Part shown: positions 1,073 to 53,580 of the stretch, in pieces
Position numbering within the stretch: position 1 is the stretch's first letter
Layout of the letters: the number at the start of each line of letters is the position of its first letter
Assembly (NCBI GenBank): GCA_964499445.1
Contig: CAZCLE010000001.1
Span: 29,615-93,614 of the forward strand
Origin: an uncultured Dehalococcoidales bacterium
GTDB lineage: Bacteria > Chloroflexota > Dehalococcoidia > Dehalococcoidales > GCA-2688105
Length of the DNA: 64,000 bases
Reading direction: 5' to 3'
Notes under the pieces: model-generated
Database searches by the model: none
What the model was told of the DNA's origin: nothing
Seen by the model: the letters and a program-made list of their open reading frames with translations, nothing else
Made by a program: the position numbers and the translations under genes

Positions 1073-1744
1073 TTGGTAATGATTAGACAAAATGTTAGCC
1101 AGATATTAAGTGAACTACCAGATGGGGTTGAACTGGTGGCGGCGGCTAAAACCAGAAAACCTGAAGAGGTGCTGGAAGCCGTCGAATCGGGGGTAAGAAT
1201 TATAGGTGAAAACTATGTCCAGGAAGCCGAGAGGGTCTACGAAGTAGTCGGCAACAGAGCTAAATGGCATTTTATCGGATACCTTCAAAGAAATAAGGTG
1301 AAAAAAGCGGTAAGGATATTTGACATGATAGAAACCGTTGACTCTATTGAAATAGCCCAGGAAATTGATAAAAGATGCGCTCAAATCGGCAAAATAATGC
1401 CGGTACTAATCGAGGTAAACAGTGGTCGGGAAAAACAAAAATCAGGTGTATTACCCGAGAATGCGGAACAATTAGTCAGAGAGATTTCGGTTCTTCCCAA
1501 CGTAAGAGTAACGGGGCTTATGACCATGGGACCCCGTTTCGGAAACCCCGAAGATTCAAGACCTTATTTTGTGGAAACCAAAAAACTGTTTGACCGGATT
1601 AAAAAACTTAATTTACCTAACCTAGAGATGAGGTATCTTTCCATGGGAATGACCAATTCCTATAAAATTGCCCTGGAGGAAGGCGCCAACGTAGTGAGAA
1701 TAGGTAACAAGATATTTGGCGAGAGGGAGTATGAAAGAAGTTGA
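1073..1744 (+). CDS. yggS: YggS-family pyridoxal-phosphate homeostasis protein (alanine-racemase N-terminal fold)
   Basis: 223 aa. Contains AAKTRKPEEVLEAV...IIGENYVQEA...WHFIGYLQRNKVKK...LSMGMTNSYKIALEEGANVVRIG, the pattern typical of YggS/PROSC. Confidence 0.85.
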   Translation: MVMIRQNVSQILSELPDGVELVAAAKTRKPEEVLEAVESGVRIIGENYVQEAERVYEVVGNRAKWHFIGYLQRNKVKKAVRIFDMIETVDSIEIAQEIDKRCAQIGKIMPVLIEVNSGREKQKSGVLPENAEQLVREISVLPNVRVTGLMTMGPRFGNPEDSRPYFVETKKLFDRIKKLNLPNLEMRYLSMGMTNSYKIALEEGANVVRIGNKIFGEREYERS

Positions 1745-1779
1745 CTATCGGGGTTTTGACGCTTCAAGACTCCAGATTC

Positions 1780-2442
1780 TTATTCCAGCGGTAAGAGTTT
1801 TAAGTCCTTGACTATATCATTAAGGTCAGCAAAGGGAATACAATTAAGATTCATCTCCTTACAATAAGTAAGTAGCTCACCGGTAGCGAAAATATATTGA
1901 GCCTGCCTTGCCGGGGAAACATCAGAAATACCATTACCCACATATACTACGCGATAACCCCGGCTCAAAAACGACCTGATATACGCCTCCTTGAAACCGC
2001 TCTCCAATTGGTTGCCCTCTGGTCCTATATACCACGCCTCAACGCCGTTAGGACTGAACCGATTCTGGGCAGCGAATACCTCGATGTTCTCTACACCGAT
2101 ATCTCTTAACACTGCCTCTATATAGAAACTCAGCCCGTTACTTACAATGACAAACCGGAAGCCATTTCTATGGCAATAGGCTATCAGCTCATGAACTCCG
2201 GCTCGTATCTTCACCTTACCCTCGGCAAATTTAAGCAAGGTCTGCCTATCAGCCTTAACCATGGCAAAGGCATGGGTATTGAAATGGTTGACCGATATCT
2301 TGCCCTCCCTATACTGTGTCAACAGTTGCCGCCAGTCCCCATCGGCAAAGGCGTCCAGCAACAGGAAACTCACATCCTTTTCGGTGATGGTACCGTCGAA
2401 ATCACACTGAACCAGGGCTTTCACGGCTTCGGTTGAGTGCAT
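1780..2442 (-). CDS. HAD-superfamily subfamily IB phosphatase (MtnX/PSPase-like)
   Basis: 220 aa. HAD motif I is DFDGTIT, and VIVSNGL and GNGISD are the later motifs. Confidence 0.6.
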   Translation of the reverse strand: MHSTEAVKALVQCDFDGTITEKDVSFLLLDAFADGDWRQLLTQYREGKISVNHFNTHAFAMVKADRQTLLKFAEGKVKIRAGVHELIAYCHRNGFRFVIVSNGLSFYIEAVLRDIGVENIEVFAAQNRFSPNGVEAWYIGPEGNQLESGFKEAYIRSFLSRGYRVVYVGNGISDVSPARQAQYIFATGELLTYCKEMNLNCIPFADLNDIVKDLKLLPLE

Positions 2443-2531
2443 TATTATGCGTAACTCCTATCACAAGCTCGGATTAACTATCAGATGGGAAGGAAGGGGG
2501 TTAAGCGGGGTGGTGATTCTCAGTTTACGAC

Positions 2532-3026
2532 TCACATCGCTTCAGTCCCGGTGTCGGGTTCAATCTTGTGTAACTTGTCCTGGCTCTCTATATGGTCGAT
2601 ATATAAGATACCATTGAGATGGTCGAGTTCGTGTTCCAGAGCCTGAGCCATGAGACCGGTAGCTTTGATTCTAATCGCCTTCCCCTGCCTATCCCAGCCT
2701 TTGACGGTGACCGAGACTGACCGCTTTATCTCGCCATAATAGCCGGGGACGCTAAGGCAGCCTTCTGTCACCTCCCGCTCCCCGCTGCGCTTCACCATCT
2801 GCGGATTGACGATAGCAACAGGCTCCTCACCCGGCATCTGGAGTACCACCACCCGCAGAGATACCCCAACCTGAGGAGCTGCCAGACCCACGCCATTTGT
2901 CTGCCGCATGGTCTGAATCATATCGTCAATAAGCTGCTGAATTGAACCGTCAACGGTTGGCACCCTTTTGGCTTTTTGCCTCAGCACCGAATCACTAGAG
3001 AGGTAACGCATTGCCAGAGTTGCCAT
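2532..3026 (-). CDS. def: Peptide deformylase
   Basis: 164 aa with all three PDF motifs: [18 protein letters not shown] and HELDHLNG. Confidence 0.95.
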
Positions 3027-3208
3027 GGTGCTGATTACCCCTTTCCCGTATTAGCTACAGCGTAATCCTTTAAGCAATCCAGTCCCAAAGCACAATGTTA
3101 GCATATTTGACGAGACAAGGACAAGTTGACGGCACTAGCCGGGAATAATCTCCGTTTGCTCTGGAAAATAAACTGTGCTAATATGCTTGAGCAGGGTTAA
3201 AACTGCAT

Positions 3209-3285
3209 CGGGGTGTAGCGCAGCCAGGTAGCGCACCTGAATGGGGTTCAGGTGGTCGCCGGTTCAAATCCGGCCACCCCGACCA
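3209..3285 (+). tRNA. tRNA-Pro (anticodon GGG), CCA encoded
   Basis: Hand-folded cloverleaf. Acceptor stem is CGGGGTG/CACCCCG, D stem GCGC/GCGC, anticodon stem CCTGA/TCAGG. The anticodon loop A-T-GGG-G-T gives anticodon GGG with G37. T arm is GCCGG-TTCAAAT-CCGGC, followed by A73-CCA. Confidence 0.9.
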
Positions 3286-3350
3286 TAGATAACAATTAGA
3301 ACGGGGGGGTTGTATAGCTCCCCCTTATTAGTAATGGACATAAAATATTA

Positions 3351-3379
3351 TTGACTTTAGTATTGTTCGAGTATATATT
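3351..3379 (+). promoter_or_regulatory. Sigma-70-like promoter candidate for the Z1 gene
   Basis: TTGACT (3351-3356), a 17-nt spacer, then TATATT (3374-3379), about 60 nt upstream of ATG 3438. Confidence 0.35.
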
Positions 3380-3437
3380 TACCATAAAATATTGAGAATA
3401 ACACGAGGGTCTAGGTAAACATTAACGGGGGCAATAA

Positions 3438-5600
3438 ATGCTAGTTAAAGGGAATTTTTACGATGCTCTGGTGAAAACAAGGGGAGATTCTGAGGACCTT
3501 CAGAATAAAATGGAGGAAACCATCCAGAAGTTCTTGGAAAATGAAACAAATATGAACAAACCGGGGATGCTTCTCGGTAAGATACAAGGTGGCAAGACAA
3601 GAGCTTTCATGGGGATAATTGCTTTGGCATTCGATAATGATTATGACATGGCAATTATTCTAACGAAAGGAACGAAAGCACTGGCTCGTCAAACCTTCGC
3701 AAGACTAAAAAAGGATTTTCGCAATTTCGTTGATGACAACATGGTCAAGCTTTATGACATCATGTTGAATATTCCGGAACGTTTGCCTGGTTTCATTCTT
3801 AGACAGAAATTGATAATGATTGTGAAGAAACAAACAAACAACTTAGACAGAGTAATAAGAATGATTGTCCAAACGTATCCAGATTTAGGTAATAGGAAAA
3901 TATTGATAATTGACGATGAAGCAGATTTTGCGAGCCTTGGATTTACAAAAAAAGCAGAGGGGGACGTTGAGCTGAGAAGAATAGCTTCGCAAATTGATGA
4001 GTTGAGAAAAAAAGTAAAAAAATCTGACTTCTTAGAGGTTACTGCAACGCCTTATGCTTTATATCTCCAGCCAGAGGACACAACAGTACCAAGGGGAGAG
4101 GGACAGTTCGTTTTTGAACCTCAACGTCCAGTGTTTACCGTGCTTCTACCTATCTACGAAGGGTACGTTGGCGGAGATTTCTTTTTTGAAGAGAGTAAAG
4201 AAGAGGGCTCTATTGCGCACTGTGTCTATGAAGAAGTCCCCCTTGATGAATTAGATGCGTTAAGAAGAGAAAATAGAAAGGTGTTCAAAATTGAGGATTG
4301 CCTGACACACAGGAGGGTACAGGTTCTTAGAAGGGGAATCCTAAACTTCATAGTAGGTGCTTGCGTAAGAAGAATACAGCAAAGGAAGTTGCGGAAAAGA
4401 GAAGAGCATTACAGTTTTGTGGTTCATACTGAGCAGGGGAAAGAGGCTCATGATTGGCAAGTGGAAGTCGTTGCGAAACTGAATGAATCGCTTATATATT
4501 GCGCGAATCACAACTTGCCAAGGTTGTCAGAACTTGTACGTGAATCATATGATGACCTTTCAAAGTCTATAAGCATTATGAATACTCCACCAGAATACGA
4601 TGAAGTATTTCAGGAAGTATTGACAGCCTTGAAACTTGACTACTTCTTTATAAGAAAGGTCAATTCAGATGCAGCAGTCGAGCAATTGCTTGATGATAAT
4701 GGAGAACTGGAACTAAGCGCACCTCTTAATGTCTTCATTGGAGGGCAAATTCTGGATAGAGGAGTGACAATAAGGAATTTCATTGGGTTCTACTACGGTA
4801 GAAGACCTAGAAAGTTCCAGCAAGACACGGTATTGCAGCACTCGCGGATATTCGGAAATAGACCGAGGGAAGACCTAGCAGTAACTCGTTTTTACACTGC
4901 GTTAGAGATATATTCAGTTCTTGAAAGAATAAATGGATTTGATAACGCATTGAGGGAAGCTTTTGAAAAAGGTGCACACGCCGGAGTGGTATTTATTCGC
5001 AAAGATTCGTCTAATAGAATCCTTCCTTGCAGTCCTAACAAAATTTCTATTTCGTCAACGACCACGTTGAGACCGGGTATGAGGATGTTACCCATAGGAT
5101 TCCAAACGGATTACATAAAAAATATCAGGGGTAGAATAGAGGAGTTAGATAAAGTTATTTTTGGTCAGATGCCTGATGAGAAAGGAAAAGCTTTCCTAAT
5201 TGAATTTTCTACTGCAAACTCAATCATAGATATAATAGCCGAAACACTGGTGTTTGAACTAGATTGGGAGTGGGAGGCATTCAAATCGTGTATGGAGTTC
5301 TTATCAAAGAACACCGAAAATAAAGAAACACAAGGTAAGGTTTGGTGCTTGGTAAGGACTGGAAGGGACATTAGCATTAAGAAGAAGGACGGGAGTTTCA
5401 CTGATGATGTAGATACAGGGTCAACTGATACAAATCCAGCTAGAAAGATTGCAATTGATATTCCAGCGTTAATTCTAATCAGACAAAATGGCTCTGCGGA
5501 AAAAGGATGGAGAGGTTCGCCCTTCTGGTGGCCAGTTTTAATTGTTCCACAAAGAACAAGGACAATGGTTTTTGCAAATAAAGTAGCGGACGTTGACTGA
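3438..5600 (+). CDS. Z1-domain protein: a P-loop/DEAD-like NTPase fused to a Z1 domain, a putative restriction/defence-type enzyme
   Basis: 720 aa. Walker A is GKIQGGKTRAF, Walker B is ILIIDDEADFAS, and VTATPYAL is present. The C-terminal block GGQILDRGVTIRNFIGFYYGRRPRKFQQDTVLQHSRIFGNRP resembles the Z1 signature (RGLTLEGL...Y.R......DTL.QMGRWFGYR). AT-rich relative to neighbours. Confidence 0.7.
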   Translation: MLVKGNFYDALVKTRGDSEDLQNKMEETIQKFLENETNMNKPGMLLGKIQGGKTRAFMGIIALAFDNDYDMAIILTKGTKALARQTFARLKKDFRNFVDDNMVKLYDIMLNIPERLPGFILRQKLIMIVKKQTNNLDRVIRMIVQTYPDLGNRKILIIDDEADFASLGFTKKAEGDVELRRIASQIDELRKKVKKSDFLEVTATPYALYLQPEDTTVPRGEGQFVFEPQRPVFTVLLPIYEGYVGGDFFFEESKEEGSIAHCVYEEVPLDELDALRRENRKVFKIEDCLTHRRVQVLRRGILNFIVGACVRRIQQRKLRKREEHYSFVVHTEQGKEAHDWQVEVVAKLNESLIYCANHNLPRLSELVRESYDDLSKSISIMNTPPEYDEVFQEVLTALKLDYFFIRKVNSDAAVEQLLDDNGELELSAPLNVFIGGQILDRGVTIRNFIGFYYGRRPRKFQQDTVLQHSRIFGNRPREDLAVTRFYTALEIYSVLERINGFDNALREAFEKGAHAGVVFIRKDSSNRILPCSPNKISISSTTTLRPGMRMLPIGFQTDYIKNIRGRIEELDKVIFGQMPDEKGKAFLIEFSTANSIIDIIAETLVFELDWEWEAFKSCMEFLSKNTENKETQGKVWCLVRTGRDISIKKKDGSFTDDVDTGSTDTNPARKIAIDIPALILIRQNGSAEKGWRGSPFWWPVLIVPQRTRTMVFANKVADVD

Positions 5601-5693
5601 TGCAGTAATAGATTGGATTGATAATAGAACGATAATAAGATATGATTATTTAGTAAAAGGAGGCAAGCGGCCTCCGCCTTTTACACGGGCTAC

Positions 5694-5738
5694 ATGGGGT
5701 TCAGGTGGTCGCCGGTTCAAATCCGGCCACCCCGACCA
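5694..5738 (+). repeat. Displaced 3' half of tRNA-Pro (att-type direct repeat)
   Basis: ATGGGGTTCAGGTGGTCGCCGGTTCAAATCCGGCCACCCCGACCA is identical, 45 of 45 nt, to 3241-3285. The flanking bases differ on both sides. Confidence 0.85.
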
Positions 5739-5911
5739 GTAAACATAAGTCACGGTGGTTGTTGGCTGTCGTAGACCAAGCTTGATACTAATCCCCATAC
5801 CCGCACCGAACGGGACAGTATCCAAACGTCCTGCGGGGCAGATTGATTTTCCTTCATGGATACCACACACGTAACTCGCATTCGATTCTAAAATATGGTG
5901 TGGAGACAGAG

Positions 5912-7318
5912 ATGAAGCGTAAATATGGAAAAGTAACCCGTCAAACTGTTGAAGAATTAACGACAATTGTGGGTAAGGGTAATATTTCCACGGACAAAGG
6001 CGAAATGGAGGGGTATTCTTACGATGAAATGCCGATTACCAAACCTCATGTTCCGCAGGTCGTAGTAAAGCCCAAAGACGCCAAGACAATAGCCAAATTA
6101 CTGGCTTTTGCCAACGAGAAAAGAATTCCGGTTACCCCGAGAGGTGCCGGGACTGGGCTGAGTGGTGGCTGTATACCTATCTACGGCGGCATTGTACTCA
6201 CGCTGGAGAGAATGAACCGGATTCTGGAGATAGACGGGGACAATTTCGTGGCTATCGTGGAACCTGGCGTTATATTATCTGACCTCCGTAATCAGGTAGA
6301 GGAACAAGGGCTCTACTATCCTGTTTACCCGGGCGAAGGGACTGCCACTATTGGGGGCAATGTGGCCACAAATGCCGGAGGAATGAATGCGGTTAAATAT
6401 GGGGTAACCAGACACCATGTTCTGGGACTAGAAGCAGTACTCCCAAATGGTGATATTATAAAAACCGGCGGGGAATTTGTGAAGTGCTCCACGGGCTATG
6501 ATTTGACTCAGCTTATCGCTGGCTCAGAAGGAACATTAGCCGTGATAACCAAAGTCATACTGAAGCTTACCACCAAGCCAACAAAAAGAGAGGTGCTCTT
6601 CATTCCCTTTGTGAATCTACAGAACGCTATTGATGCGGTGCCTGAAATTCTCAGGCTCAAAATGACCCCAATAGGCATCGAATTTATGGAAAGAAGTATC
6701 ATTGAGATAGTTGAGAAACATTTAGGCAAAGAACTACCATATCACGACTACGAGGCGTTTCTCATGATAATAATGGAGGGAGAATCAGAAGACGAAATCT
6801 ACGAGTACTTTGCCAAAGTTGACGAAATCTGCAAACAGCACGGAGCCACTGAGGCCATGATACCCGGCAGCGAGCGGGCAAAGAGAAAACTTCTTGACGC
6901 CAGGGAAAAGTTCTACTCCGCCCTAAGCAGGTTTGCTCCGATGCAAATAGCCGATGTAGTTGTCCCTCGTAGTGAGATAGCCAGATTCATCAGAAGGGTA
7001 AAAGAGATATCGGGAGAATACCAGGTGCCTGTTGTGGGGTATGGACATGCCGGTGATGGTAACGTACATTTGCACCCTATTTGCGTCAATATGAGTAGGG
7101 AGGAATGGGACAGAAGGCTTCCTCACCTAATGAGTGACATATACCGGGCTGGGGTCTCCTTCGGAGGGGCAATATCAGGAGAGCACGGCATCGGTTTTGA
7201 TAAGAAGGCATATCTCCCGATACAGATGGACAACGCAAACTTAAGCATTATGAAAGCCGTAAAGCAGGCTTTTGACCCCAACAATATCCTTAATCCCGGA
7301 AAGATTTTCGATTTATAG
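5912..7318 (+). CDS. FAD-linked oxidase (GlcD / D-lactate dehydrogenase family)
   Basis: VTPRGAGTGLSGG FAD-binding motif and a C-terminal SGEHGIG...K motif. The ORF track starts at 5843. I prefer ATG 5912 (MKRKYGKV, GGAG 6 nt upstream). Confidence 0.8.
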   Translation: MKRKYGKVTRQTVEELTTIVGKGNISTDKGEMEGYSYDEMPITKPHVPQVVVKPKDAKTIAKLLAFANEKRIPVTPRGAGTGLSGGCIPIYGGIVLTLERMNRILEIDGDNFVAIVEPGVILSDLRNQVEEQGLYYPVYPGEGTATIGGNVATNAGGMNAVKYGVTRHHVLGLEAVLPNGDIIKTGGEFVKCSTGYDLTQLIAGSEGTLAVITKVILKLTTKPTKREVLFIPFVNLQNAIDAVPEILRLKMTPIGIEFMERSIIEIVEKHLGKELPYHDYEAFLMIIMEGESEDEIYEYFAKVDEICKQHGATEAMIPGSERAKRKLLDAREKFYSALSRFAPMQIADVVVPRSEIARFIRRVKEISGEYQVPVVGYGHAGDGNVHLHPICVNMSREEWDRRLPHLMSDIYRAGVSFGGAISGEHGIGFDKKAYLPIQMDNANLSIMKAVKQAFDPNNILNPGKIFDL

Positions 7319-7477
7319 ATTCAGGACACAAGAACTGACAATTTACCCCAACGCTTGGAAAGACCTTTTGGTAAGGCTCTAAGCCAATTGGGGCGACAAC
7401 GCACACTCCCCCCTTCCAATCTGTCGGGGAAGCTGAAATGACTTTATTGGGAAGCCCCCGGCAATAGAGGGAATTAG

Positions 7478-8125
7478 TTATGTAGAAACCTTTCGCAGCC
7501 CGTTATCATCCAGCATAGGTCTCACGGTTTGTATCACCTCGTCGATAACATCAGTCAGATTCAGATTCTCCAGTTTGAGTTCCGTCTTCCCCGCTTCTCC
7601 CTTAGTCAGGTCAATGACCTTGTTAATCAGGTTCAGCAGGTGCTGACCACTACCCAAGATGCCGCTGAGACACCGCCTCTGTCCGTCATTGATGTCACCG
7701 GGGACGCCATCCAGCATCAGCTTAGAAAAGCCAATAATGGCGTTAAGCGGGGTACGTAGCTCGTGAGACATACTGGCTAGAAACTCGGACTTAGCCCGGC
7801 TATCTGCTGCCAGCTCCCTGATTTTCTCCATAAGTTCTCGCTGTTGCGCCATCAGTTGTGCATTCTTTTCCTGAAGTTCCCGCTCTGCCCGCTTGCGCTC
7901 AGCCAGTTCTCGCTGAGCCTTCTGGTACTGCCTGCCGTTCTCGATTACAAGGTGCTGCCTCTCATAGCCCTTCCGTCCCAATATGAGCGGCAAGCTTCTA
8001 CCGGTGTTCTCACCATCGTTAACTATCAGGATGTTCTCTTTCCTGTTCCTCCCTTTCTCCTTTTTCATTTCCTCTCCGCCTACACCCCTTCTCTCCAACC
8101 TCAATCCCTGTGGCAGTAAAACCAA
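7478..8125 (-). pseudogene. Truncated sensor histidine kinase: receiver remnant, coiled coil and HisKA, with no HATPase domain
   Basis: 215 aa. ILIVNDGENTG...GYE looks like a receiver start. It is followed directly by a coiled coil and an H-box (SEFLASMSHELRTPLNAIIGF). The ORF stops about 90 aa later with no N/G1/F/G2 boxes, and 160 bp of non-coding DNA follow. Confidence 0.55.
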
Positions 8126-8535
8126 ACTTCATCTGTCTGGGGCTCAATGTAGCAAATGTCATTGCCGATACAAGCCAGATTTATCATGTGTGGCTTGCCT
8201 CGCTCCTCAATTATGGCGACCGACATTAGGAACCCGCTTCTGGCGGCTTGGCGCTGCAATTGAAGAGCATAATCATCACAATCGTACTTAACATCCAGCG
8301 GGCAGACGCCGTCCTCTCCCGCCACCAGGTGAATGCACTCATTAGTGTCATCCTCAGCCAGCCAGGACTTAAGTTCCTCAAGCGAGGTAAATTCGCGCGG
8401 TTCAATTGGTTTCGCAACCACAACTTCCCCGGTAGCTCCTGAATCAGCGTATACCGGTGAATGATTGTTCAGGAATAGTCCAGAAACAACCAGGACCAAG
8501 AGGGTGAAGATTATTATGAATTGCTTGTTTCTCAT
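8101..8535 (-). CDS. Small secreted protein, possibly with a transglutaminase-like Cys-His-Asp fold
   Basis: 144 aa. N-terminal signal-like segment MRNKQFIIIFTLLVLVVSGLF...VYA. The order CDDYA...ARSGF...HMINLA...IEPQTDE resembles a transglutaminase-core C/H/D arrangement. This is a weak, by-eye call. Confidence 0.35.
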   Translation of the reverse strand: MRNKQFIIIFTLLVLVVSGLFLNNHSPVYADSGATGEVVVAKPIEPREFTSLEELKSWLAEDDTNECIHLVAGEDGVCPLDVKYDCDDYALQLQRQAARSGFLMSVAIIEERGKPHMINLACIGNDICYIEPQTDEVWFYCHRD

Positions 8536-8640
8536 TGCTAGACCTCTGCTTTTCTCCTGCTTTCAGCATACAGCCAAGATGAGAAACAAAGCATAAAAAT
8601 CCGTGGGGAGTTATAAACATTCCGTAAACATTTTTGGGGC

Positions 8641-8670
8641 AATAAAAAAGGCACCCGAAAAAGAGTGCCC
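8641..8670 (-). terminator. Possible rho-independent terminator after the OmpR-type regulator
   Basis: The minus strand reads GGCAC-tctttttcgg-GTGCC followed by TTTTTTATT. The stem is short. Confidence 0.35.
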
Positions 8671-8695
8671 CACTGATGGCTTTACTTGCTATGAG

Positions 8696-9400
8696 CTATT
8701 CGCGTTTTGCCACAGCTTTAAACTGATAGCCCACGCCAGGAATAGTGATGATATACTTTGGACTTTCTGGGTCGGGTTCCAGTTCCTTCCGCAGACGACC
8801 TATGAAAACACGAAGATACTCCTTTTCCACTCCGTACTCTGGTCCCCAGAGCTTGCCTAGCAGCATGCTATGGGTAAGAACCTTATTCGCGTTAAGTACC
8901 AGTTCCTGGAGGAGATTATATTCGGTAGGTGTCAATCTGACCTCACGGCTGGCAACAGTTATCCGTCTTTGAGAAAAGTTAATCTCGATGTTATCGCAGG
9001 TAAAGGAAGGTCGAGCCGGTATAGCATGAGCCGCCTCGGTGCGGCGAAACACCGCCCTGACCCGAGCTATCAGCTCCTCCACCCCAAATGGCTTGGTGAG
9101 ATAGTCATCGGCACCGAGGTTCAGGCATTCTACCTTGTCGGCTACATCACCCCGGGCACTGAGCATGATAATCGGGATTTGCGACCACTCACGGAGTCGG
9201 CGGCAGACCTCAAAGCCGTCTATCCCGGGCATCATTATATCCAGAATCAAGAGGTCAGGCAGTTCTCTTTCAATAATCTCGAGGGCTTCAGCACCATCCA
9301 CCGCCATAAGGGTCTGGTAATCCCTGGCTTCCAGGTTAGCGCGGACGAATTTTCTTATTACCGGGTCGTCATCAACAATGAGAATACGAGGGCGGCGCAC
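8696..9400 (-). CDS. OmpR/KdpE-like response regulator (receiver + winged helix)
   Basis: 234 aa. ILIVDDD...DLLILDIMMPGIDG...K receiver. The C-terminal LTPTEYNLLQELVLNANKVLTHSMLLGKLWGPEYGVEKEYLRVFIGRLRKELE matches the trans_reg_C pattern. Confidence 0.9.
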   Translation of the reverse strand: MRRPRILIVDDDPVIRKFVRANLEARDYQTLMAVDGAEALEIIERELPDLLILDIMMPGIDGFEVCRRLREWSQIPIIMLSARGDVADKVECLNLGADDYLTKPFGVEELIARVRAVFRRTEAAHAIPARPSFTCDNIEINFSQRRITVASREVRLTPTEYNLLQELVLNANKVLTHSMLLGKLWGPEYGVEKEYLRVFIGRLRKELEPDPESPKYIITIPGVGYQFKAVAKRE

Positions 9401-17375: not shown

Positions 17376-18473
17376 ATGGAACAAATCCAGTCCTTGCAGA
17401 TGCGGCAGGAGCTAACACAAATCCTCCGGATGGAACAGGCTAACCTGCTGGAGATGCCTGAGGATGAGTTTAACAGGCTAATCACCGAGATGGAGCAGGG
17501 TCCCCTTTTCCGAAGGCTATACCAGAGAGAAAAGCTAATCTGCCATCAGAGATTTCCCAGAACTGATATTTCCTCTGGTTTTTATCAACTCAAAGAAGAG
17601 ATAGCAGCCGATACAGGCTCTGTGGATGTTGAATCTCTTCTGCTGAACAAAGAGTATATCGTCCGTCAAATACAGAAACTAGGGCTGGAGAAATTCAAAC
17701 AGTATTTCCTGTTCTCCGAACCAGCGATGACCCTGGAACAAATCGCCAGAGAGTGCGACCTGGAGGTCGCCGAGGTTCAGACGATAAACAACCTTATTGA
17801 TGAATTCTCTATTATGAGTGAGTTTTATCATCCCTCTAATGTCACCTCAGGCGACATTCACTATTCCAAGGTTGCCTCGGTGGAGAAGGATGAGAAGGGT
17901 TTTATTATCGGCTATTTTTCAGCTTCTTTCGCCCGAGGTCGGTATGCGATTAATTATGAAAGATTTGAGGAGTTAAGAACGGCAGGTGCGTTCACCGAAA
18001 CTGAAATCAAGGAAGCCAGACAGTTATTCAAGAGGCTGGAACTAATCAATAGCCGTAAGGATACACTAACTCAGATACTGCAAAATATTATTGACAAGCA
18101 GGCACTCTACCTAGAGTCTGGTGATTTGAAGTCTCTTTTATCCTTCAGTCAAAAGGAGCTAGCCGAAAAAATTGGACTGGCTCCGAGCTCAGTCAGTCGT
18201 GCTATAAGAAGCAAAAGTATAGACACCCCCTGGGGTAGAGAAGTCCCTCTAAAATACTTCTTCCCCAGGCCAAAGAGGTTCAGGAAGGAACTGCTCAGGC
18301 AGCTCCTTGAAACCGATAATGGACTTTCCTCAGACGAGGCAATACGGACCAAGCTCTGGGAGAAATTTGGCGTGGCCATCTCCCGGCGCTCGGTAGCCAA
18401 CTTGAGGAAGGAACTTAAGTTTCCTGCAGCCCACGGAAAACGGCATCCTATCCAGAGGAGGCAGACAAGATGA
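17376..18473 (+). CDS. Short, divergent RNA polymerase sigma-54 (RpoN)-like factor
   Basis: 365 aa. The Gln/Leu-rich N-terminus LQMRQELTQILRMEQANLLEMPEDEFNRLITEMEQGPLF resembles region I. ELAEKIGLAPSSVSRAIRSKSIDTPWGREVPLKYFF resembles the sigma-54 HTH plus the (E)LKYFF segment. ISRRSVANLRKEL resembles the RpoN box ARRTVAKYRE. It is shorter than typical RpoN, and the middle core-binding part was not confidently recognised. Confidence 0.6.
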   Translation: MEQIQSLQMRQELTQILRMEQANLLEMPEDEFNRLITEMEQGPLFRRLYQREKLICHQRFPRTDISSGFYQLKEEIAADTGSVDVESLLLNKEYIVRQIQKLGLEKFKQYFLFSEPAMTLEQIARECDLEVAEVQTINNLIDEFSIMSEFYHPSNVTSGDIHYSKVASVEKDEKGFIIGYFSASFARGRYAINYERFEELRTAGAFTETEIKEARQLFKRLELINSRKDTLTQILQNIIDKQALYLESGDLKSLLSFSQKELAEKIGLAPSSVSRAIRSKSIDTPWGREVPLKYFFPRPKRFRKELLRQLLETDNGLSSDEAIRTKLWEKFGVAISRRSVANLRKELKFPAAHGKRHPIQRRQTR

Positions 18474-20428
18474 GTGTTGTTTACACCGAGCGAGAAAAGT
18501 GCAAAGGATGCTATACCTGCATACGTAACTGCCCAGCTAAGGCAATCAGGGTAAGAGAGGGCTTGGCTGAAGTGATAAAGGAACGCTGTATCGCCTGCGG
18601 CATCTGCGTCCAGATCTGCATGGCAAAAGCAAAGCTAGCAGAGAGCGACACAGGAATAGTTTGGCAACTACTGGGAGGGGAGGAACCGGTAATTGCTATG
18701 CTTTCATCTCCATTTCCCGCCGCCTTTCCCGAAGTTCGCCCGAGGCGGTTGGTAACCGCCCTGAAAAAACTGGGGTTTAGTGAGGTGATGGAGGATTCCT
18801 TCGGTGCCGAGCTCGTCTGCCGTGAATATGCCCGCCTTATAAAGGAAAACAGTGATAAACCTATCCTCTCATCTACCTGTCCCGCAGTAGTGTCCTACAT
18901 TGAGAAGCACTATCCCCAGCTCATCGATAATCTGGCACCCACTGCTTCCCCCATGATAGCTATGGGTAGAGTGATTAAACGGCAGTATAATCCGCAGGCT
19001 AAGGTGGTCTTCATTGGTCCTTGCGTGGCTAAGAAAGCTGAGGCTAAGGATGAGAATGTTGCCGGGGTGGTGGACGCCGTCCTGACCTTTGCTGAGATGA
19101 AGGAGATGTTCGCCGCTAAAGGTATCAATCCCGAAACTGAGGAAGAAGGTCAATTCTCGGGGCCTAAGCCCAACCTGGGTCGCCTGTTCGCCATAACCGG
19201 GGGACTGCTCAAGATAGCCGGACTTTCCGATGACATCATAGCCAATGAAATTATCAATGCCTGTGGCCGGGACTATACGCTGAATATCGTTCGGGAGTTT
19301 GCCGAAGGCAATATCACTGCCAGGTTCATCAGCCTATGTTTCTGTGAAGGCTGTATTGACGGGCCGGTCATTGATAATGACCTAAGCATTTTTAAACGAA
19401 GGGAAATAATCAGCAATTATACTCTAAGCCAGTCAGACCCGACTCAGACCGAGAGGGACATAAAGGAGTATGCTAGCATTGACCTCAACCGCAAATTTAC
19501 CCACCGAGGTGTCGGCCTGCCGACGCCCAATGAGGAAGATGTTCAACGGGTTTTAAAGAAAATTGGCAGGGTGGACCCCCACTACCGAATGAATTGTGGT
19601 GCTTGTGGCTATAGCGGTTGCCGAGAGCTGGCAGTCGCTGTCTGTCAGGGTCTAGCTGAGACTGAAATGTGCTGGCCGTACGTGCTTGAGAAGTTGAGGA
19701 CTACTCAAGAAGAGTTAATCCAAGCTGAGAAACTGACCTCTCTGGGTCAGATGGCAGCCTCTATTGCTCATGAGGTTAATAATCCTCTGGCTGGCGTCCT
19801 CGTCTATACCCAATTGTTGGCTAAAAAGATAGCTGGTGACAAATTCTCCAAAGAGGTTGCTCTTGACTACCTATCGAAAATGGAACCGGAACTCACTCGC
19901 AGCACCAGGTTAATCCGAGGCCTTCTGGATTTCGCCCGACAGTCGCCCCCAACCCTCAGGGAGGTGAACCTCAACGAGGTCATTAACCGAGCCCTTGACC
20001 TCGCGGCTCATTCAGCTAAGCTACAGCATATCCAGATAATAAAAGAGCTCAACCCCTCCTTGCCTGAGCCCATGGCTGACTTTGACCAGCTTCAACAGGT
20101 CTGTGCCAACCTTATTATGAATGCTATCCAGGCAATGTCTGAAGGCGGCATGCTAACCCTCCGCACCTCAGTCGCTAACGATAGTCAGCTCAAGATAGAG
20201 GTTCAGGATACCGGTTGTGGCATTTCTCAGGAAAATATGCGCAAGCTGTTCACCCCCTTCTTCACCACTAAGGGAAAGGGAAAGGGGGTAGGTCTGGGTC
20301 TGGCGGTGGCCTATGGAATTATCCAGCGCCATCACGGCAAGATAGAAGTGCAAAGTAAGGAGGGAGAGGGTACTACCTTCACCATCCGCCTACCCCGGCA
20401 CCACGGGAAAAGGCCAGAAGATAAATAG
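18470..20428 (+). CDS. Sensor histidine kinase with an N-terminal 2x[4Fe-4S] ferredoxin, a [FeFe]-hydrogenase large-subunit-like (H-domain-like) domain and a putative Fe-S (CxxC...C...C) domain
   Basis: 652 aa. CKGCYTCIRNCP and CIACGICVQIC form the ferredoxin part. Hydrogenase-like motifs are SSTCPAVV (vs TSCCP), GPCVAKKAE (vs MPCxxKxxE) and LCFCEGCIDGP (vs MxCxxGCxxG). MNCGACGYSGCRELAVAVCQG...C follows. The transmitter has H-box SIAHEVNNPL, NLIMNAIQA, DTGCGI and GVGLGLA. Confidence 0.8.
   Translation: MSVVYTEREKCKGCYTCIRNCPAKAIRVREGLAEVIKERCIACGICVQICMAKAKLAESDTGIVWQLLGGEEPVIAMLSSPFPAAFPEVRPRRLVTALKKLGFSEVMEDSFGAELVCREYARLIKENSDKPILSSTCPAVVSYIEKHYPQLIDNLAPTASPMIAMGRVIKRQYNPQAKVVFIGPCVAKKAEAKDENVAGVVDAVLTFAEMKEMFAAKGINPETEEEGQFSGPKPNLGRLFAITGGLLKIAGLSDDIIANEIINACGRDYTLNIVREFAEGNITARFISLCFCEGCIDGPVIDNDLSIFKRREIISNYTLSQSDPTQTERDIKEYASIDLNRKFTHRGVGLPTPNEEDVQRVLKKIGRVDPHYRMNCGACGYSGCRELAVAVCQGLAETEMCWPYVLEKLRTTQEELIQAEKLTSLGQMAASIAHEVNNPLAGVLVYTQLLAKKIAGDKFSKEVALDYLSKMEPELTRSTRLIRGLLDFARQSPPTLREVNLNEVINRALDLAAHSAKLQHIQIIKELNPSLPEPMADFDQLQQVCANLIMNAIQAMSEGGMLTLRTSVANDSQLKIEVQDTGCGISQENMRKLFTPFFTTKGKGKGVGLGLAVAYGIIQRHHGKIEVQSKEGEGTTFTIRLPRHHGKRPEDK
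19724..20332 (+). repeat. Copy 1 of a 609-bp duplicated transmitter module (DHp + CA)
   Basis: It reads base-for-base the same as 20997-21605 (offset 1273) where I compared the lines. The encoded 200+ aa are identical in the ORF track. One mismatch sits just upstream (19723 A vs 20996 G), and similarity decays after 20332/21605. Confidence 0.85.
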
Positions 20429-20444: not shown

Positions 20445-21701
20445 ATGGAAGAGACTATAACAACCAAACCTACCCTAAAAAGCACCCTGCAGCGCTGGGA
20501 AGAAAGCATAGTAACCAGAGTTGCGGAATGGTTGCCACAGAGCGACACCAGGGGTGTGCGAAGCCCTCACTTGTGGATAATCACGGCTCTAATGGCACTT
20601 GGCACGGTCATTTACTATATAGACCAGACCCCCCTGGTTAGCGTGCCACCATTTAATTACAGCTTTTTTACTAGTGTCCATGACCTGCATCGAACATTAT
20701 TTTTCATTCCTATAATCTACGCGGCGCTGGTATTCAGGGTTCGGGGAAGCCTAATCGCTTCCTTCGTTTTTCTCGGCGTGGTGTTGCCACGTGCCCTGCT
20801 ATTCTCCCCCTATCCCGACCCACTACTCAGGCCACTTCTCCTTGTCGCCTTGGCCACTTTTGTCACTCTGTTAATAGCGACACAGCTTAATCGAATTGAA
20901 AGGGAAAGAAAGGCTCGCGCTGAACTGAGCACAGCCTACCAGGAGCTTAGCGAATATGACCAGCGGCTGAGAGAAAGCCAGGAGCAACTAATCCAGGCTG
21001 AGAAACTGACCTCTCTGGGTCAGATGGCAGCCTCTATTGCTCATGAGGTTAATAATCCTCTGGCTGGCGTCCTCGTCTATACCCAATTGTTGGCTAAAAA
21101 GATAGCTGGTGACAAATTCTCCAAAGAGGTTGCTCTTGACTACCTATCGAAAATGGAACCGGAACTCACTCGCAGCACCAGGTTAATCCGAGGCCTTCTG
21201 GATTTCGCCCGACAGTCGCCCCCAACCCTCAGGGAGGTGAACCTCAACGAGGTCATTAACCGAGCCCTTGACCTCGCGGCTCATTCAGCTAAGCTACAGC
21301 ATATCCAGATAATAAAAGAGCTCAACCCCTCCTTGCCTGAGCCCATGGCTGACTTTGACCAGCTTCAACAGGTCTGTGCCAACCTTATTATGAATGCTAT
21401 CCAGGCAATGTCTGAAGGCGGCATGCTAACCCTCCGCACCTCAGTCGCTAACGATAGTCAGCTCAAGATAGAGGTTCAGGATACCGGTTGTGGCATTTCT
21501 CAGGAAAATATGCGCAAGCTGTTCACCCCCTTCTTCACCACTAAGGGAAAGGGAAAGGGGGTAGGTCTGGGTCTGGCGGTGGCCTATGGAATTATCCAGC
21601 GCCATAAAGGTAGAATAGGAGTGCAAAGTAAGGAGGGGGAGGGTACTACCTTTACCATCTATCTACCATTGCACCATGAAGAACATGAAGAAAAAGGCTA
21701 A
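20445..21701 (+). CDS. Membrane-bound sensor histidine kinase (about 4 TM segments), whose transmitter is identical to that of the preceding kinase
   Basis: 418 aa. Hydrophobic segments are HLWIITALMALGTVIYYI, LFFIPIIYAALVF, LIASFVFLGVVL and LLLVALATFVTLLIA. A coiled coil follows, then the same LIQAEKLTSLGQMAASIAHEVNNPL...GLAVAYGIIQRH block as ORF 18470-20428. Confidence 0.85.
   Translation: MEETITTKPTLKSTLQRWEESIVTRVAEWLPQSDTRGVRSPHLWIITALMALGTVIYYIDQTPLVSVPPFNYSFFTSVHDLHRTLFFIPIIYAALVFRVRGSLIASFVFLGVVLPRALLFSPYPDPLLRPLLLVALATFVTLLIATQLNRIERERKARAELSTAYQELSEYDQRLRESQEQLIQAEKLTSLGQMAASIAHEVNNPLAGVLVYTQLLAKKIAGDKFSKEVALDYLSKMEPELTRSTRLIRGLLDFARQSPPTLREVNLNEVINRALDLAAHSAKLQHIQIIKELNPSLPEPMADFDQLQQVCANLIMNAIQAMSEGGMLTLRTSVANDSQLKIEVQDTGCGISQENMRKLFTPFFTTKGKGKGVGLGLAVAYGIIQRHKGRIGVQSKEGEGTTFTIYLPLHHEEHEEKG
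20997..21605 (+). repeat. Copy 2 of the 609-bp duplicated transmitter module
   Basis: See 19724-20332. Confidence 0.85.
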
Positions 21702-35245: not shown

Positions 35246-36541
35246 CTAGCACCTGGATGCTTTGACGCCCAAATACTTTTCCACCAACGCCATAGCACAG
35301 AACTCCCCACACATACTGCAGGCCTCTCCAGCCGAAGCATGCCTGCTGTGAACCTGGCGAGACCGCTCAGGGTTTAAGGACAGTTTAGCTTGCTCCGCCC
35401 AGTCAAGTTTCTTTCGCGCCACCGACATCTTCCTATCCCACTCCTCGGTACCCTTCACCCCTTTGACTATATCACCAGCATGGGCAGCAATGCGCGAGGC
35501 GATTACCCCCAGCTTTACATCCTCAGGGTCAGGCAGAGACAGGTGCTCGGCTGGGGTTACATAGCATAGAAAATCAGTACCGGCAGCGGCAGCGACAGCT
35601 CCACCGATAGCCCCGGTGATATGGTCATAGCCGGCAGCTACATCGGTCACCAGCGGACCCAGAACATAGAACGGAGCCCCCTTGCAGATAGACTTCTCTA
35701 AACGAACATTAGCCTCAATTTGATTCAAGGGCAGATGCCCCGGACCCTCAACCATTACCTGAACTCCAGCCTGTTGTGCCCGCGGCACCAGCTCCCCGAT
35801 AACAAGTAACTCCTCTACCTGAGCCCGGTCAGTAGCATCAGCCAGGCAACCAGGACGCATCCCGTCCCCAAGGCTCAGCGTCACGTCAAACTCCCGGGCT
35901 AACTCCAGCAAGCGGTCATAATATTCATAGAGCGGGTTTTCGCGCTCATTGTAGAGCATCCAGCCTATCAGAAAAGCACCCCCCCGAGATACCACATCAG
36001 CTACTCTTCCCTGCTGCTTAAGGCAGGCAATGGCTGACCGGGTTACGCCACAATGCACCGTTATGAAATCAACACCATCACGAATATGTTCTTCAATGGC
36101 GGCAAATAGGTCATCAACCGTCATCTTGACTATGGCGCCGTGTCTACTTATCGCCTCAATTCCGGCTTGATAAATAGGCACTGTCCCTATCGGTAAGGAG
36201 CTTGAGCCAATAATAGCCCGCCGGATAGCCGATATATCGCCGCCGGTGCTCAAATCCATAACCGTGTCTGCCCCGGAATCAATGGCAACCTTTAGCTTTT
36301 CCATCTCAGTATCAATATTGCCGAAATCAGAAGATGTCCCAATATTGGCATTGACTTTGGTAGACAGCCCCTGACCTATGCCACAAGGAATAAGCTTGGT
36401 GTGCTTAGTATTAGCTGGAATTACTATCGTCCCGCTAACCACACCCTGCCGGATAAACTCAGCTTCCACCCCCTCTTGCTTGGCTACCAAGCTCATCTGT
36501 ATTGAAACAATGCCTTTTCTGGCTAATTCTAATTGAGTCAT
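35246..36541 (-). CDS. thiC: Phosphomethylpyrimidine synthase ThiC
   Basis: Short-form ThiC with a C-terminal CSMCGEFCA cluster motif. I prefer start ATG 36541 ([17 protein letters not shown] upstream) over the track start at 36568. Confidence 0.9.
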
Positions 36542-36552
36542 ATCTGCCCCCT

Positions 36553-36697
36553 TAAAAACAAAAACCAAGGGCTACGGCTCTCATTACCAGACCCTTGGTC
36601 TAGGTTACCGCCGCTTCCCTACGCTCGCATTACCGAGATCAGGTTCACAGGGTTGGCATCAAAACACCTCTCAGCCTTTGAGCACCCCTAGCGGTTA
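36553..36697 (-). promoter_or_regulatory. TPP (THI-box) riboswitch with a terminator-type expression platform upstream of thiC-thi4
   Basis: The minus strand reads CTAGGGGTGCTCAAAGGCTGAGAGGTG...ACCCTGTGAACCTGATCTCGGTAATGCGAGCGTAGGGAAGCGG. This contains the conserved GGGGUGC, CUGAGA, ACCCU.UGAACCUGAUC, GGUAAUGC and GCGUAGGGA elements. The ACCAAGGG/CCCTTGGT hairpin (36564-36599) and TTTTTGTTTTT follow. Confidence 0.85.
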
Positions 36698-36767
36698 GCT
36701 ATAAAATTCTATTTTAAACATAGCACAAACTCTCCTGATATGCAAATGTGCCTTATTAATCTAGCTA

Positions 36768-52242: not shown

Positions 52243-53580
52243 ATGATAACAAAAGAAGCTAAACAAAAAGCCGAATCTCAAATATTAAATTACAGCGGTA
52301 GATATTCGAAAAGAATAGAGTTTAATAAAGACTACGAAAAACTAGTCACTTTCGCACCAACTAAAAAAATGGGCATATATAACTGGTTTTCGTATAAGGA
52401 AGCATTTTCTAACATACTGGTTTACAAGCTAATAGAGTTATTTGAACTGAATAGTGGCGATTATTTGCTAGACCCATTCTGTGGGATAGGTACTACTCTA
52501 CTAGCAGCTAAGGAAAAAGGCATAAATGCTTACGGTATAGATATACTACCTTTATGCACATTTGTTACACAGGTCAAGATGAATGTGTGCAACTATGATA
52601 CAGGAAAGATGAGAGAGTATCTTGATCAGATCTTAGATAGCGACTTAGTGATAGATAGGAGCTTAGTTTTACCTGATATTAAGATAATCACAAAGGCATT
52701 TGATTCAAGTGATGGATTCCTTGAAATCTTGTCTTTCAAACGACTGATAGAGAACGTAGTGGAAGACCAACTGTATCGGAATTTGTTTACGCTTGGATTG
52801 CTATCAATAGTCGGAGAGTTGAGCAATACTAAGAAAGATGGTGCATTTTTAAGACTGGTTCAACACAAGCAACATAAGGACACAAAATCTCTTTTCAGAG
52901 CACAGATTGCAAAATACATTCTGGATGTTGATAACCTTAGTTCTGGCTTATTTGAGAATGACTTGCTTAGGAGTAACGTAGACAATAAAGTCTTTTGCAT
53001 GGATTCAAGAGGAATAGAGTTAGATCGATGTTTTCACGCTGTAATCACATCTCCACCGTATTTGAATCGCTATGACTATACCCGTACCTATGCTTTGGAA
53101 CTAGCTACAGAGTTCGTAACTAGCTTTCAAGAGTTGAAGACGATTAGATATAATACAATACGGTCTCATGTGGAAGCAAAGTTCGGAAAGAGTCAATTCG
53201 TTAAGTCAGTTATTCTAAGAGAGTGTTTGGCGACTCTATCAAATAGACAACTCAATAATCCCCAAATCCCAGAGATGATTTCTGGTTACTTCGAAGATAT
53301 GTACTTAGTACTTAGAACAATAAAACAATACCTATATGTAAATGGTAAAGTAGCTTTTGTTGTCGGAACAGTAAGATATAGTGGAGTGAATATTCCTGTG
53401 GACATCATACTAGCTGATATTGGATCTCAATTAGGATTCAAACTAGAAAAAATTATCATAACAAGAGTAAAAGGGAATAGTCAACAACAACGAAGGCAGT
53501 ATGATGATGACCCAAGCAGAGAAAGCATAGTTATACTGTCTATGCCACAGGATTCCTTAAACACCTCAACTTCTCGATAA
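52243..53580 (+). CDS. DNA amino-methyltransferase (N4-C or N6-A), with motif I before motif IV
   Basis: 445 aa. Motif I is LLDPFCGIGTTLLAA (aa about 75). Motif IV is VITSPPYLNRYDY (aa about 270). Confidence 0.8.
   Translation: MITKEAKQKAESQILNYSGRYSKRIEFNKDYEKLVTFAPTKKMGIYNWFSYKEAFSNILVYKLIELFELNSGDYLLDPFCGIGTTLLAAKEKGINAYGIDILPLCTFVTQVKMNVCNYDTGKMREYLDQILDSDLVIDRSLVLPDIKIITKAFDSSDGFLEILSFKRLIENVVEDQLYRNLFTLGLLSIVGELSNTKKDGAFLRLVQHKQHKDTKSLFRAQIAKYILDVDNLSSGLFENDLLRSNVDNKVFCMDSRGIELDRCFHAVITSPPYLNRYDYTRTYALELATEFVTSFQELKTIRYNTIRSHVEAKFGKSQFVKSVILRECLATLSNRQLNNPQIPEMISGYFEDMYLVLRTIKQYLYVNGKVAFVVGTVRYSGVNIPVDIILADIGSQLGFKLEKIIITRVKGNSQQQRRQYDDDPSRESIVILSMPQDSLNTSTSR

Follow-up and report, generated by a model that had tools for sequence, protein, structure and literature searches.

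Cis-mobilizable elements (CIMEs), known from Streptococcus thermophilus, are derivatives of integrative elements that are flanked by attachment (att) sites and carry no recombination genes. Restriction-type motors of the kind considered here normally power a three-part restriction enzyme. Here we describe a 2.4-kb islet at the tRNA-Pro(GGG) gene of an uncultured Dehalococcoidales bacterium, which holds a single gene for a 720-aa motor of this kind and lies in a 64-kb stretch of contig CAZCLE010000001.1 (positions 29,615 to 93,614, referred to below as the window). The islet is probably a cargo-only, CIME-like or tycheposon-remnant-like derivative of a family of tRNA-Pro tyrosine-integrase elements, carrying a solitary restriction-type motor. 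Both the cargo-only form of the tRNA islet and the solitary subfamily of H subunits are variations on kinds already described.

Three further described systems come close to this locus. Tycheposons of Prochlorococcus are tyrosine-recombinase elements that target a few tRNA genes. As integration recurs there, older elements are moved inward, and variable islands with adaptive or defensive cargo accumulate from degenerated elements and partial tRNAs (Hackl et al., bioRxiv 10.1101/2020.12.28.424599). For restriction-modification (RM) genes, Nobusato and Kobayashi and Furuta et al. have described insertion with long target duplication as a recombinase-independent mode (PMC2853133). In the CglI restriction enzyme, both the nuclease and the sequence recognition reside in the R subunit, which the H subunit needs for cleavage (PMC5861437).

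The islet and the tRNA-Pro hot spot

The intact tRNA-Pro(GGG) gene is the sole tRNA gene in the window according to both ARAGORN and Rfam. As stated in the original prediction, which was made from the letters of the window, its last 45 nt recur exactly about 2.4 kb downstream (Table 1). The repeat has a spacing of 2453 nt, starts two bases before the anticodon, within the anticodon loop, and ends with the encoded CCA. To the left of the right-hand copy, the sequence has nothing in common with the tRNA 5' half. In 64 kb, an exact repeat of this length cannot be due to chance, and neither a third copy nor a degenerate remnant was found elsewhere in the window. A tRNA-targeting integrative element is expected to have direct repeats that span the tRNA from its anticodon loop to its 3' end and an intact tRNA at one junction, as seen here on the left; the internal integrase gene of such an element is missing from the islet. 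The one substantial open reading frame (ORF) between the repeats is intact and does not encode a recombinase, and the remaining ORFs of at least 50 aa lie inside it in other frames or run antisense over the right repeat. No integrase homologue was found by tblastn in the whole window with 17 integrases of the lineage as queries. The GC content is 0.37 to 0.43 in the islet and 0.45 to 0.55 in the flanks. The ORF, tblastn, and GC data thus agree with the predicted AT-rich, single-ORF islet without an integrase.

Table 1. Positions of the islet features in the window and of the motifs in its 720-aa product
Feature	Position	Strand	Basis
tRNA-Pro(GGG) gene, intact, CCA encoded; attL side	3209-3285	+	ARAGORN; Rfam tRNA, 64.7 bits
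Left 45-nt block, anticodon loop to CCA	3241-3285	+	Direct-repeat search, 100% identity
Insert	3286-5738		
Left insert end: G/C hairpin (3303-3324), then TTATTAGT; terminator-like	3286-3332	+	Terminator-like site scan
Promoter-like TTGACT-17-TATATT, about 60 nt upstream of the ORF	3351-3379	+	10/12 consensus match
720-aa ORF	3438-5600	+	
Right insert end: hairpin GGAGGC-aagcg-GCCTCC (5659-5675), then GCCTTTTACACGGGCTAC directly abutting the partial tRNA copy	5656-5693	+	Hairpin scan
Right 45-nt block: displaced tRNA 3' half without 5' half; attR side	5694-5738	+	Direct-repeat search
Walker A, GKIQGGKT (Q replacing G)	residues 47-54		
Walker B, DDEAD	residues 159-163		
Low-confidence loop after Walker B (predicted local distance difference test [pLDDT] below 50)	residues 165-176		
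H/H pair, 8 residues apart, opening a helical insertion	H330, H338; helices 335-399		
Motif VI, QxxR spacing	Q467-H-S-R470		

We then compared the insert ends and the repeat with other loci, which are referred to by L numbers. A plain scan of metagenome contigs for the 45-mer found it in 105 loci. In most of them the copy sits within an intact tRNA; in 21 there is a partial copy with unrelated sequence before it, and 8 more loci start too near the copy to tell. The 40 nt after the copy are different in almost every locus, even where the upstream def-tRNA-Pro flank is 72 to 93% identical. In 17 of the 105 loci, the copy is followed at a distance of about 150 nt by the start of a same-strand gene of the Phage_integrase family (tyrosine integrase; two representatives gave E = 9e-25 and 5e-32), showing that integrase-bearing elements in related genomes use the same attachment site. 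Truncated integrase fragments of 98 to 160 aa follow the tRNA copy in L129, L145, L173, L150, and L142. L175, in which the intact tRNA is followed by TGCCGACA..., and L091, in which the same flank follows a partial copy, form an empty/occupied pair in another genome. The 45-mer was absent from viral contigs. This tRNA-Pro is an integration hot spot in the lineage, and the interpretation of the repeat as an integration footprint was upheld, as many different inserts have this 45-mer at their junction and the right end of the islet recurs in other loci.

The 38-nt right end adjoins partial tRNA-Pro copies, at 91 to 100% identity, in 11 other loci (L089, L091, L100, L116, L122, L128, L130, L138, L155, L160, and L167), all with cargos other than that of the islet; its hairpin alone is found in L183. 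It is a conserved att-proximal arm that doubles as a terminator-like hairpin. The hairpin noted in the original prediction as the terminator of the gene is therefore present but not private to it, being part of an element end common to cassettes with other cargos. One contig combines a decayed integrase on the tRNA side (L129) with the shared right end and a partial copy on the far side (L128). The left end, after the tRNA copy, is 81 to 89% conserved in L095, L153, L160, L174, L138, and L183, and its hairpin probably terminates the tRNA transcript. The predicted promoter-like sequence also exists, but such matches do not exceed the shuffled background (7 in the window, with 6.5 expected from shuffles), and because they are not enriched we call it only a putative promoter, inferred from the motif.

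At least nine loci of the hot spot (L138, which has two in tandem, L097, L127, L178, L167, L155, L160, L183, and L102) contain sister cassettes, segments of 0.9 to 1.9 kb bounded by tRNA-Pro copies on both sides or by a copy on one side and the shared right end on the other. None of them contains an integrase. AbiTii, a TMEM175-type channel, and a weak HEPN match are among their cargos; others are DUF2284 accompanied by an HTH_17 excisionase-like protein and an AAA_15 ATPase whose neighbor was judged by eye from its sequence to be nitroreductase-like. In L153 and L095, an AAA_21 (AbiEii-like) ATPase gene comes after the tRNA and the left-end hairpin, and a second tRNA copy was not seen before these loci end. 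The sister loci, including L138:23-2583, present arrays or single copies of one or two genes, several with hairpin ends. This layout recalls an integron array, but the junctions are tRNA derived.

The islet resembles CIMEs in having att-type direct repeats at both ends, no integrase or excisionase, and a site shared with integrase-bearing relatives; 11 inserts share its right end, one of them with the decayed integrase of L129/L128. Tandem accretion, another CIME trait, was seen in L138. In contrast to CIMEs, the islet is much smaller (2.4 kb and one gene), its host lineage and integrase family differ, and its mobilization in trans is only conjectural. With tycheposons the locus has in common tRNA-targeting tyrosine recombinases, accreting variable islands, partial tRNAs, and adaptive or defensive cargo. 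It differs in belonging to the phylum Chloroflexota and in having single-gene cassettes that share short conserved ends. In Dehalococcoidia, as in Prochlorococcus, integrase-driven elements appear to build a variable, defense-enriched tRNA locus together with small cassettes that lack an integrase and have ends in common. This hot-spot architecture bears on gene exchange in streamlined, plasmid-poor lineages.

The motor protein and its relatives

The PADLOC model "Type II helicase domain protein," which we take to correspond to the H subunits of REBASE, matched the islet protein over its full length (residues 17 to 707, E 3e-60). The PADLOC search suggested in the original prediction thus gave a helicase match, and the models for MzaC, a component of the MZA anti-phage system, matched only in part. 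With the NCBIfam model (NF041933) the protein scored 72.7 bits against a cutoff of 1500; it also differs from MzaC in length and termini, and the neighbors MzaA, -B, -D, and -E are absent. An AlphaFold model built with 67 homologues had a pLDDT of 85 and a predicted template modeling score (pTM) of 0.84, and a fold search with it returned superfamily 2 (SF2) motors, with a Type I HsdR subunit on top. When residues 511 to 720 were modeled separately, only one PDB entry matched significantly, namely that of the CglI H-subunit C-terminal domain (6F1S; Foldseek E 3.6e-5, probability 1.00, target TM 0.62); the next PDB match had an E value of 0.45. The three protein domains are all accounted for by the motor and the 6F1S domain.

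The likeness to CglI-type H subunits extends to individual motifs. Both have the Q-for-G Walker A, a DDEAD Walker B followed by a flexible loop, an H/H pair 8 residues apart at a helical insertion, a QxxR motif VI, and the 6F1S C-terminal fold, and in the 67 sequences the Walker A and Walker B motifs, H330 and H338, and the motif VI residues are invariant. In contrast, the islet protein exceeds them in length by about 90 aa and has diverged too far for PDB or profile matches at the sequence level. Searches with Pfam, NCBIfam, PADLOC, and the fold model found no nuclease or modified-base reading domain. The protein thus consists of the motor and a DNA-binding C-terminal domain, without a detectable nuclease domain. 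A Type IV (modification-dependent) enzyme would combine a nuclease with a modified-base reader, neither of which was found, and the suggestion of a Type IV-like restriction activity is not supported. A CglI/NgoAVII-type system would have an adjacent R subunit (phospholipase D [PLD] nuclease and B3) and a methyltransferase, and the islet gene stands beside neither; among the matches listed, there was no PLD or B3 gene in the window. The absence of a partner at the locus had been correctly predicted, as no methyltransferase or nuclease adjoins the gene. The islet thereby isolates a restriction-type motor from its nuclease in directly testable form.

More than 4700 relatives were obtained in a protein search, with identities of 50 to 100% for the top 120, and the taxa named for the closest of them place the bacterium in Dehalococcoidia. 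Species-representative genomes contained 398 loci from Chloroflexota, the Candidate Phyla Radiation (CPR), Bacillota, Acidobacteriota, Planctomycetota, and other phyla. Neighbor clustering in 80 homologue loci, the survey that the original prediction had proposed, revealed no common partner. The commonest families among 147 immediate neighbors were ResIII (7), N6_N4_Mtase (7), DUF1232 (7), and MvaI/BcnI (5). PADLOC identified Type III or MADS-like methyltransferases in 6 to 7 of the neighbors and a Type II restriction endonuclease in 5, and adjacent Res-like and Mod-like genes occurred in about 7 to 12 loci. The orthologues of the islet gene are therefore mostly solitary, and their partners, where present, are of the MvaI/BcnI type or Type III/MADS-like and not PLD-B3. 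Four of the five nearest species-representative relatives (63 to 72% identity) lie directly downstream of secA. Standing alone is the rule for this 720-aa subfamily and is not special to this locus, so that the solitude noted in the original prediction is real but not peculiar.

The six closest homologues (79 to 84% amino acid identity) lie in six different places, three with housekeeping flanks and three in mobile or RM-rich DNA. All seven copies, including that of the window, are intact, with pairwise ratios of nonsynonymous to synonymous substitution rates (dN/dS) of 0.10 to 0.22. The gene is under purifying selection in all seven contexts, and the possibility, also raised at the outset, that it is a relic is unlikely. 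A unit of 2490 nt is common to L195 and L196, 98.8% identical between them, within unrelated flanks. The unit consists of the gene with 252 nt upstream and 74 nt downstream, and represents a recent single-gene transfer; the repeat elements flanking the L195 to L197 units had no Rfam match. Other copies are bracketed by long non-tRNA target duplications with no recombinase inside (L008, 55 nt and exact; L026, 75 nt; L046, 51 nt; L047, 69 nt; L056, about 125 nt), which fits the insertion with long target duplication known for RM genes. Homologues were also present in 11 viral contigs. In six loci the homology ends exactly at the start and stop codons, and mobility of the ORF by itself was rejected as an explanation, because a dS of 0.4 to 0.9 erases noncoding similarity. 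The solitary motor gene could conceivably travel as a one-gene cassette on several vehicles (tRNA-Pro att cassettes, repeat-flanked 2.5-kb units, long-target-duplication insertions, and prophage ends), a generalization that we consider doubtful. In a bolder version, the motor's own activity may contribute to the recombinase-free insertions.

Origin and role of the islet

In the history that we favor as likely, a tyrosine integrase would have inserted the cassette, through site-specific recombination, at the att site of tRNA-Pro(GGG), which begins in the anticodon loop and reaches to the 3' end. With the cassette would have come a new tRNA 3' half, so that the tRNA gene stays intact, and the original 3' half would have been pushed to its present place at the right end. 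The integrase, absent from the islet and the window, may have acted in trans, as with a CIME, or may have been deleted later, as in a tycheposon-type remnant. Excision would be expected to produce a circle junction of the form ...CGGGCTAC + 45-mer + TAGATAACAATT... (its left side also written TTTTACACGGGCTAC) and to restore attB as the tRNA 5' half + 45-mer + GTAAACATAAG.

Several observations weigh against this reading. The five contigs that encode an identical Def protein all carry the islet and include no empty allele. The empty site at tRNA-Pro that the original prediction proposed to look for was thus not found for the exact locus, where the nearest relative, L168, holds other DNA, and an empty/occupied pair is available only from the other genome mentioned above. 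No excised circle or attP junction was seen either, but the junction scan was empty because the source population is lacking from the metagenome contig collection. This is concluded because the scan, which used one degenerate pattern for attL, attR, attB, and attP, missed even the known junctions; the plain 45-mer scan replaced this four-junction pattern. A hairpin similar to the left end is also present away from any tRNA in L194, which makes the role of the left end as an att arm uncertain and leaves the right end as the only convincing arm. In addition, the motor of H.CglI alone has only residual ATPase activity and needs its R subunit (PMC5861437). The other outcome that would have spoken for an ancestral segment, its presence at tRNA-Pro without repeats, was not encountered in any related genome. 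Short Logan contigs, many of about 2.3 to 2.5 kb, were considered as evidence of a circle and rejected. Their lengths are a selection effect, as the full-length gene alone needs at least 2.2 kb, and contig L003 begins and ends within the 45-nt repeat, as expected of a de Bruijn-graph break.

The islet could instead be a decayed remnant, that is, an integrase-bearing island at tRNA-Pro from which internal deletions removed the integrase and other genes to leave an immobile stump with one passenger gene. The integrase fragments in five loci attest to ongoing decay, the islet is fixed in 5 of 5 conspecific contigs, and the tycheposon study reports degenerated elements and scattered partial tRNAs at such islands. 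However, both ends of the islet are intact and its two 45-mers are still 100% identical, and several unrelated single-gene cassettes have the same ends, for which a recurrent cassette form is an easier explanation than independent deletions stopping at the same points. We therefore regard a decayed remnant as unlikely. Much more improbable is a recombinase-independent insertion with long target duplication, driven by the cargo or by break repair, which hit the tRNA by coincidence. This mode has been reported for Type I to IV RM genes, with duplications of >30 bp (Furuta 2010, PMC2853133), and the five family members described above are bracketed in this way at non-tRNA sites. The islet shares with such insertions a restriction-related gene, direct repeats of >30 bp, and the absence of an internal mobility gene, a combination that holds for several homologues at non-tRNA sites. 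In contrast to them, it lies at an integrase hot spot and is repeated at its borders the 3' half of a tRNA, from the anticodon loop to the tRNA 3' end. Furuta, Abe and Kobayashi list this extent as typical of integrase-mediated integration and attribute tRNA-like repeats to site-specific recombination (PMC2853133). The repeat is moreover the site of 17 integrase-bearing inserts and adjoins an end sequence common to other inserts.

A different question is whether the gene functions by itself. It could encode an orphaned H subunit, parted from its R and M genes, that works with an RM pair elsewhere in the genome or is functionless alone. The dependence of the CglI H subunit on R for cleavage is in line with this, and the window contains a Type II methyltransferase (52243-53580) and a convergent 420-aa ORF of unknown family. 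Such an orphan is rather unlikely, since no partner recurs at the 79 surveyed loci, where the commonest restriction-related families each account for at most 7 of the 147 immediate neighbors, since the gene is under purifying selection in all contexts, and since it moves as a unit without partners. In the role that we put first, though with low confidence, the protein, once loaded on DNA, would consume ATP to translocate, and would either act alone, through interference with the replication or packaging of foreign DNA, or recruit a nuclease encoded elsewhere. We tentatively suggest that the motor gene may be a mobile anti-invader module, because of its company at the hot spot (AbiTii and AbiEii-like ATPases), its carriage by prophages, the purifying selection, and its high mobility.

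Flanks and other features of the window

Housekeeping genes flank the islet. The upstream flank carries genes for peptide deformylase (def), a HAD hydrolase, and an alanine-racemase-fold protein, and the downstream flank carries an FAD-linked oxidase gene and two-component signaling genes. L168 is 93.5% identical to the window over 1736-3289, through the tRNA, and 85% identical over 8041-9388. Between the matching stretches it has 764 unrelated nucleotides where the window has 4751 (3290-8040), and because of this unrelated DNA the variable region reaches to about 8040, past the islet. The region therefore takes in not only the islet but also the FAD-oxidase gene and an ORF for a truncated histidine kinase. 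The last two, the latter a HisKA-only ORF (7478-8125), belong to the stretch at 5739-8040 that is variable relative to L168, and no att remnant was found at its right edge. Orthologues of the FAD-oxidase gene, with 85 to 96% nucleotide identity, lie in unrelated contexts in which the homology stops at the gene. Synteny of this gene was tried as a route to an empty site and, as the contexts are unrelated, gave no conclusion for the islet; it does confirm that the variable DNA reaches to about 8040.

Two observations elsewhere in the window are minor. A 609-nt direct repeat of 100% identity (19724-20332 and 20997-21605, spacing 1273) covers the 3' parts of the adjacent ORFs 18470-20428 and 20445-21701, and could represent a recent gene conversion, a duplication, or an assembly artifact. 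A thiamine pyrophosphate (TPP) riboswitch (36599-36699, minus strand; Rfam, 72 bits) lies just upstream of the minus-strand ORF 35246-36568. The ThiC-family match obtained with the window ORFs may belong to this ORF. This riboswitch arrangement is ordinary.

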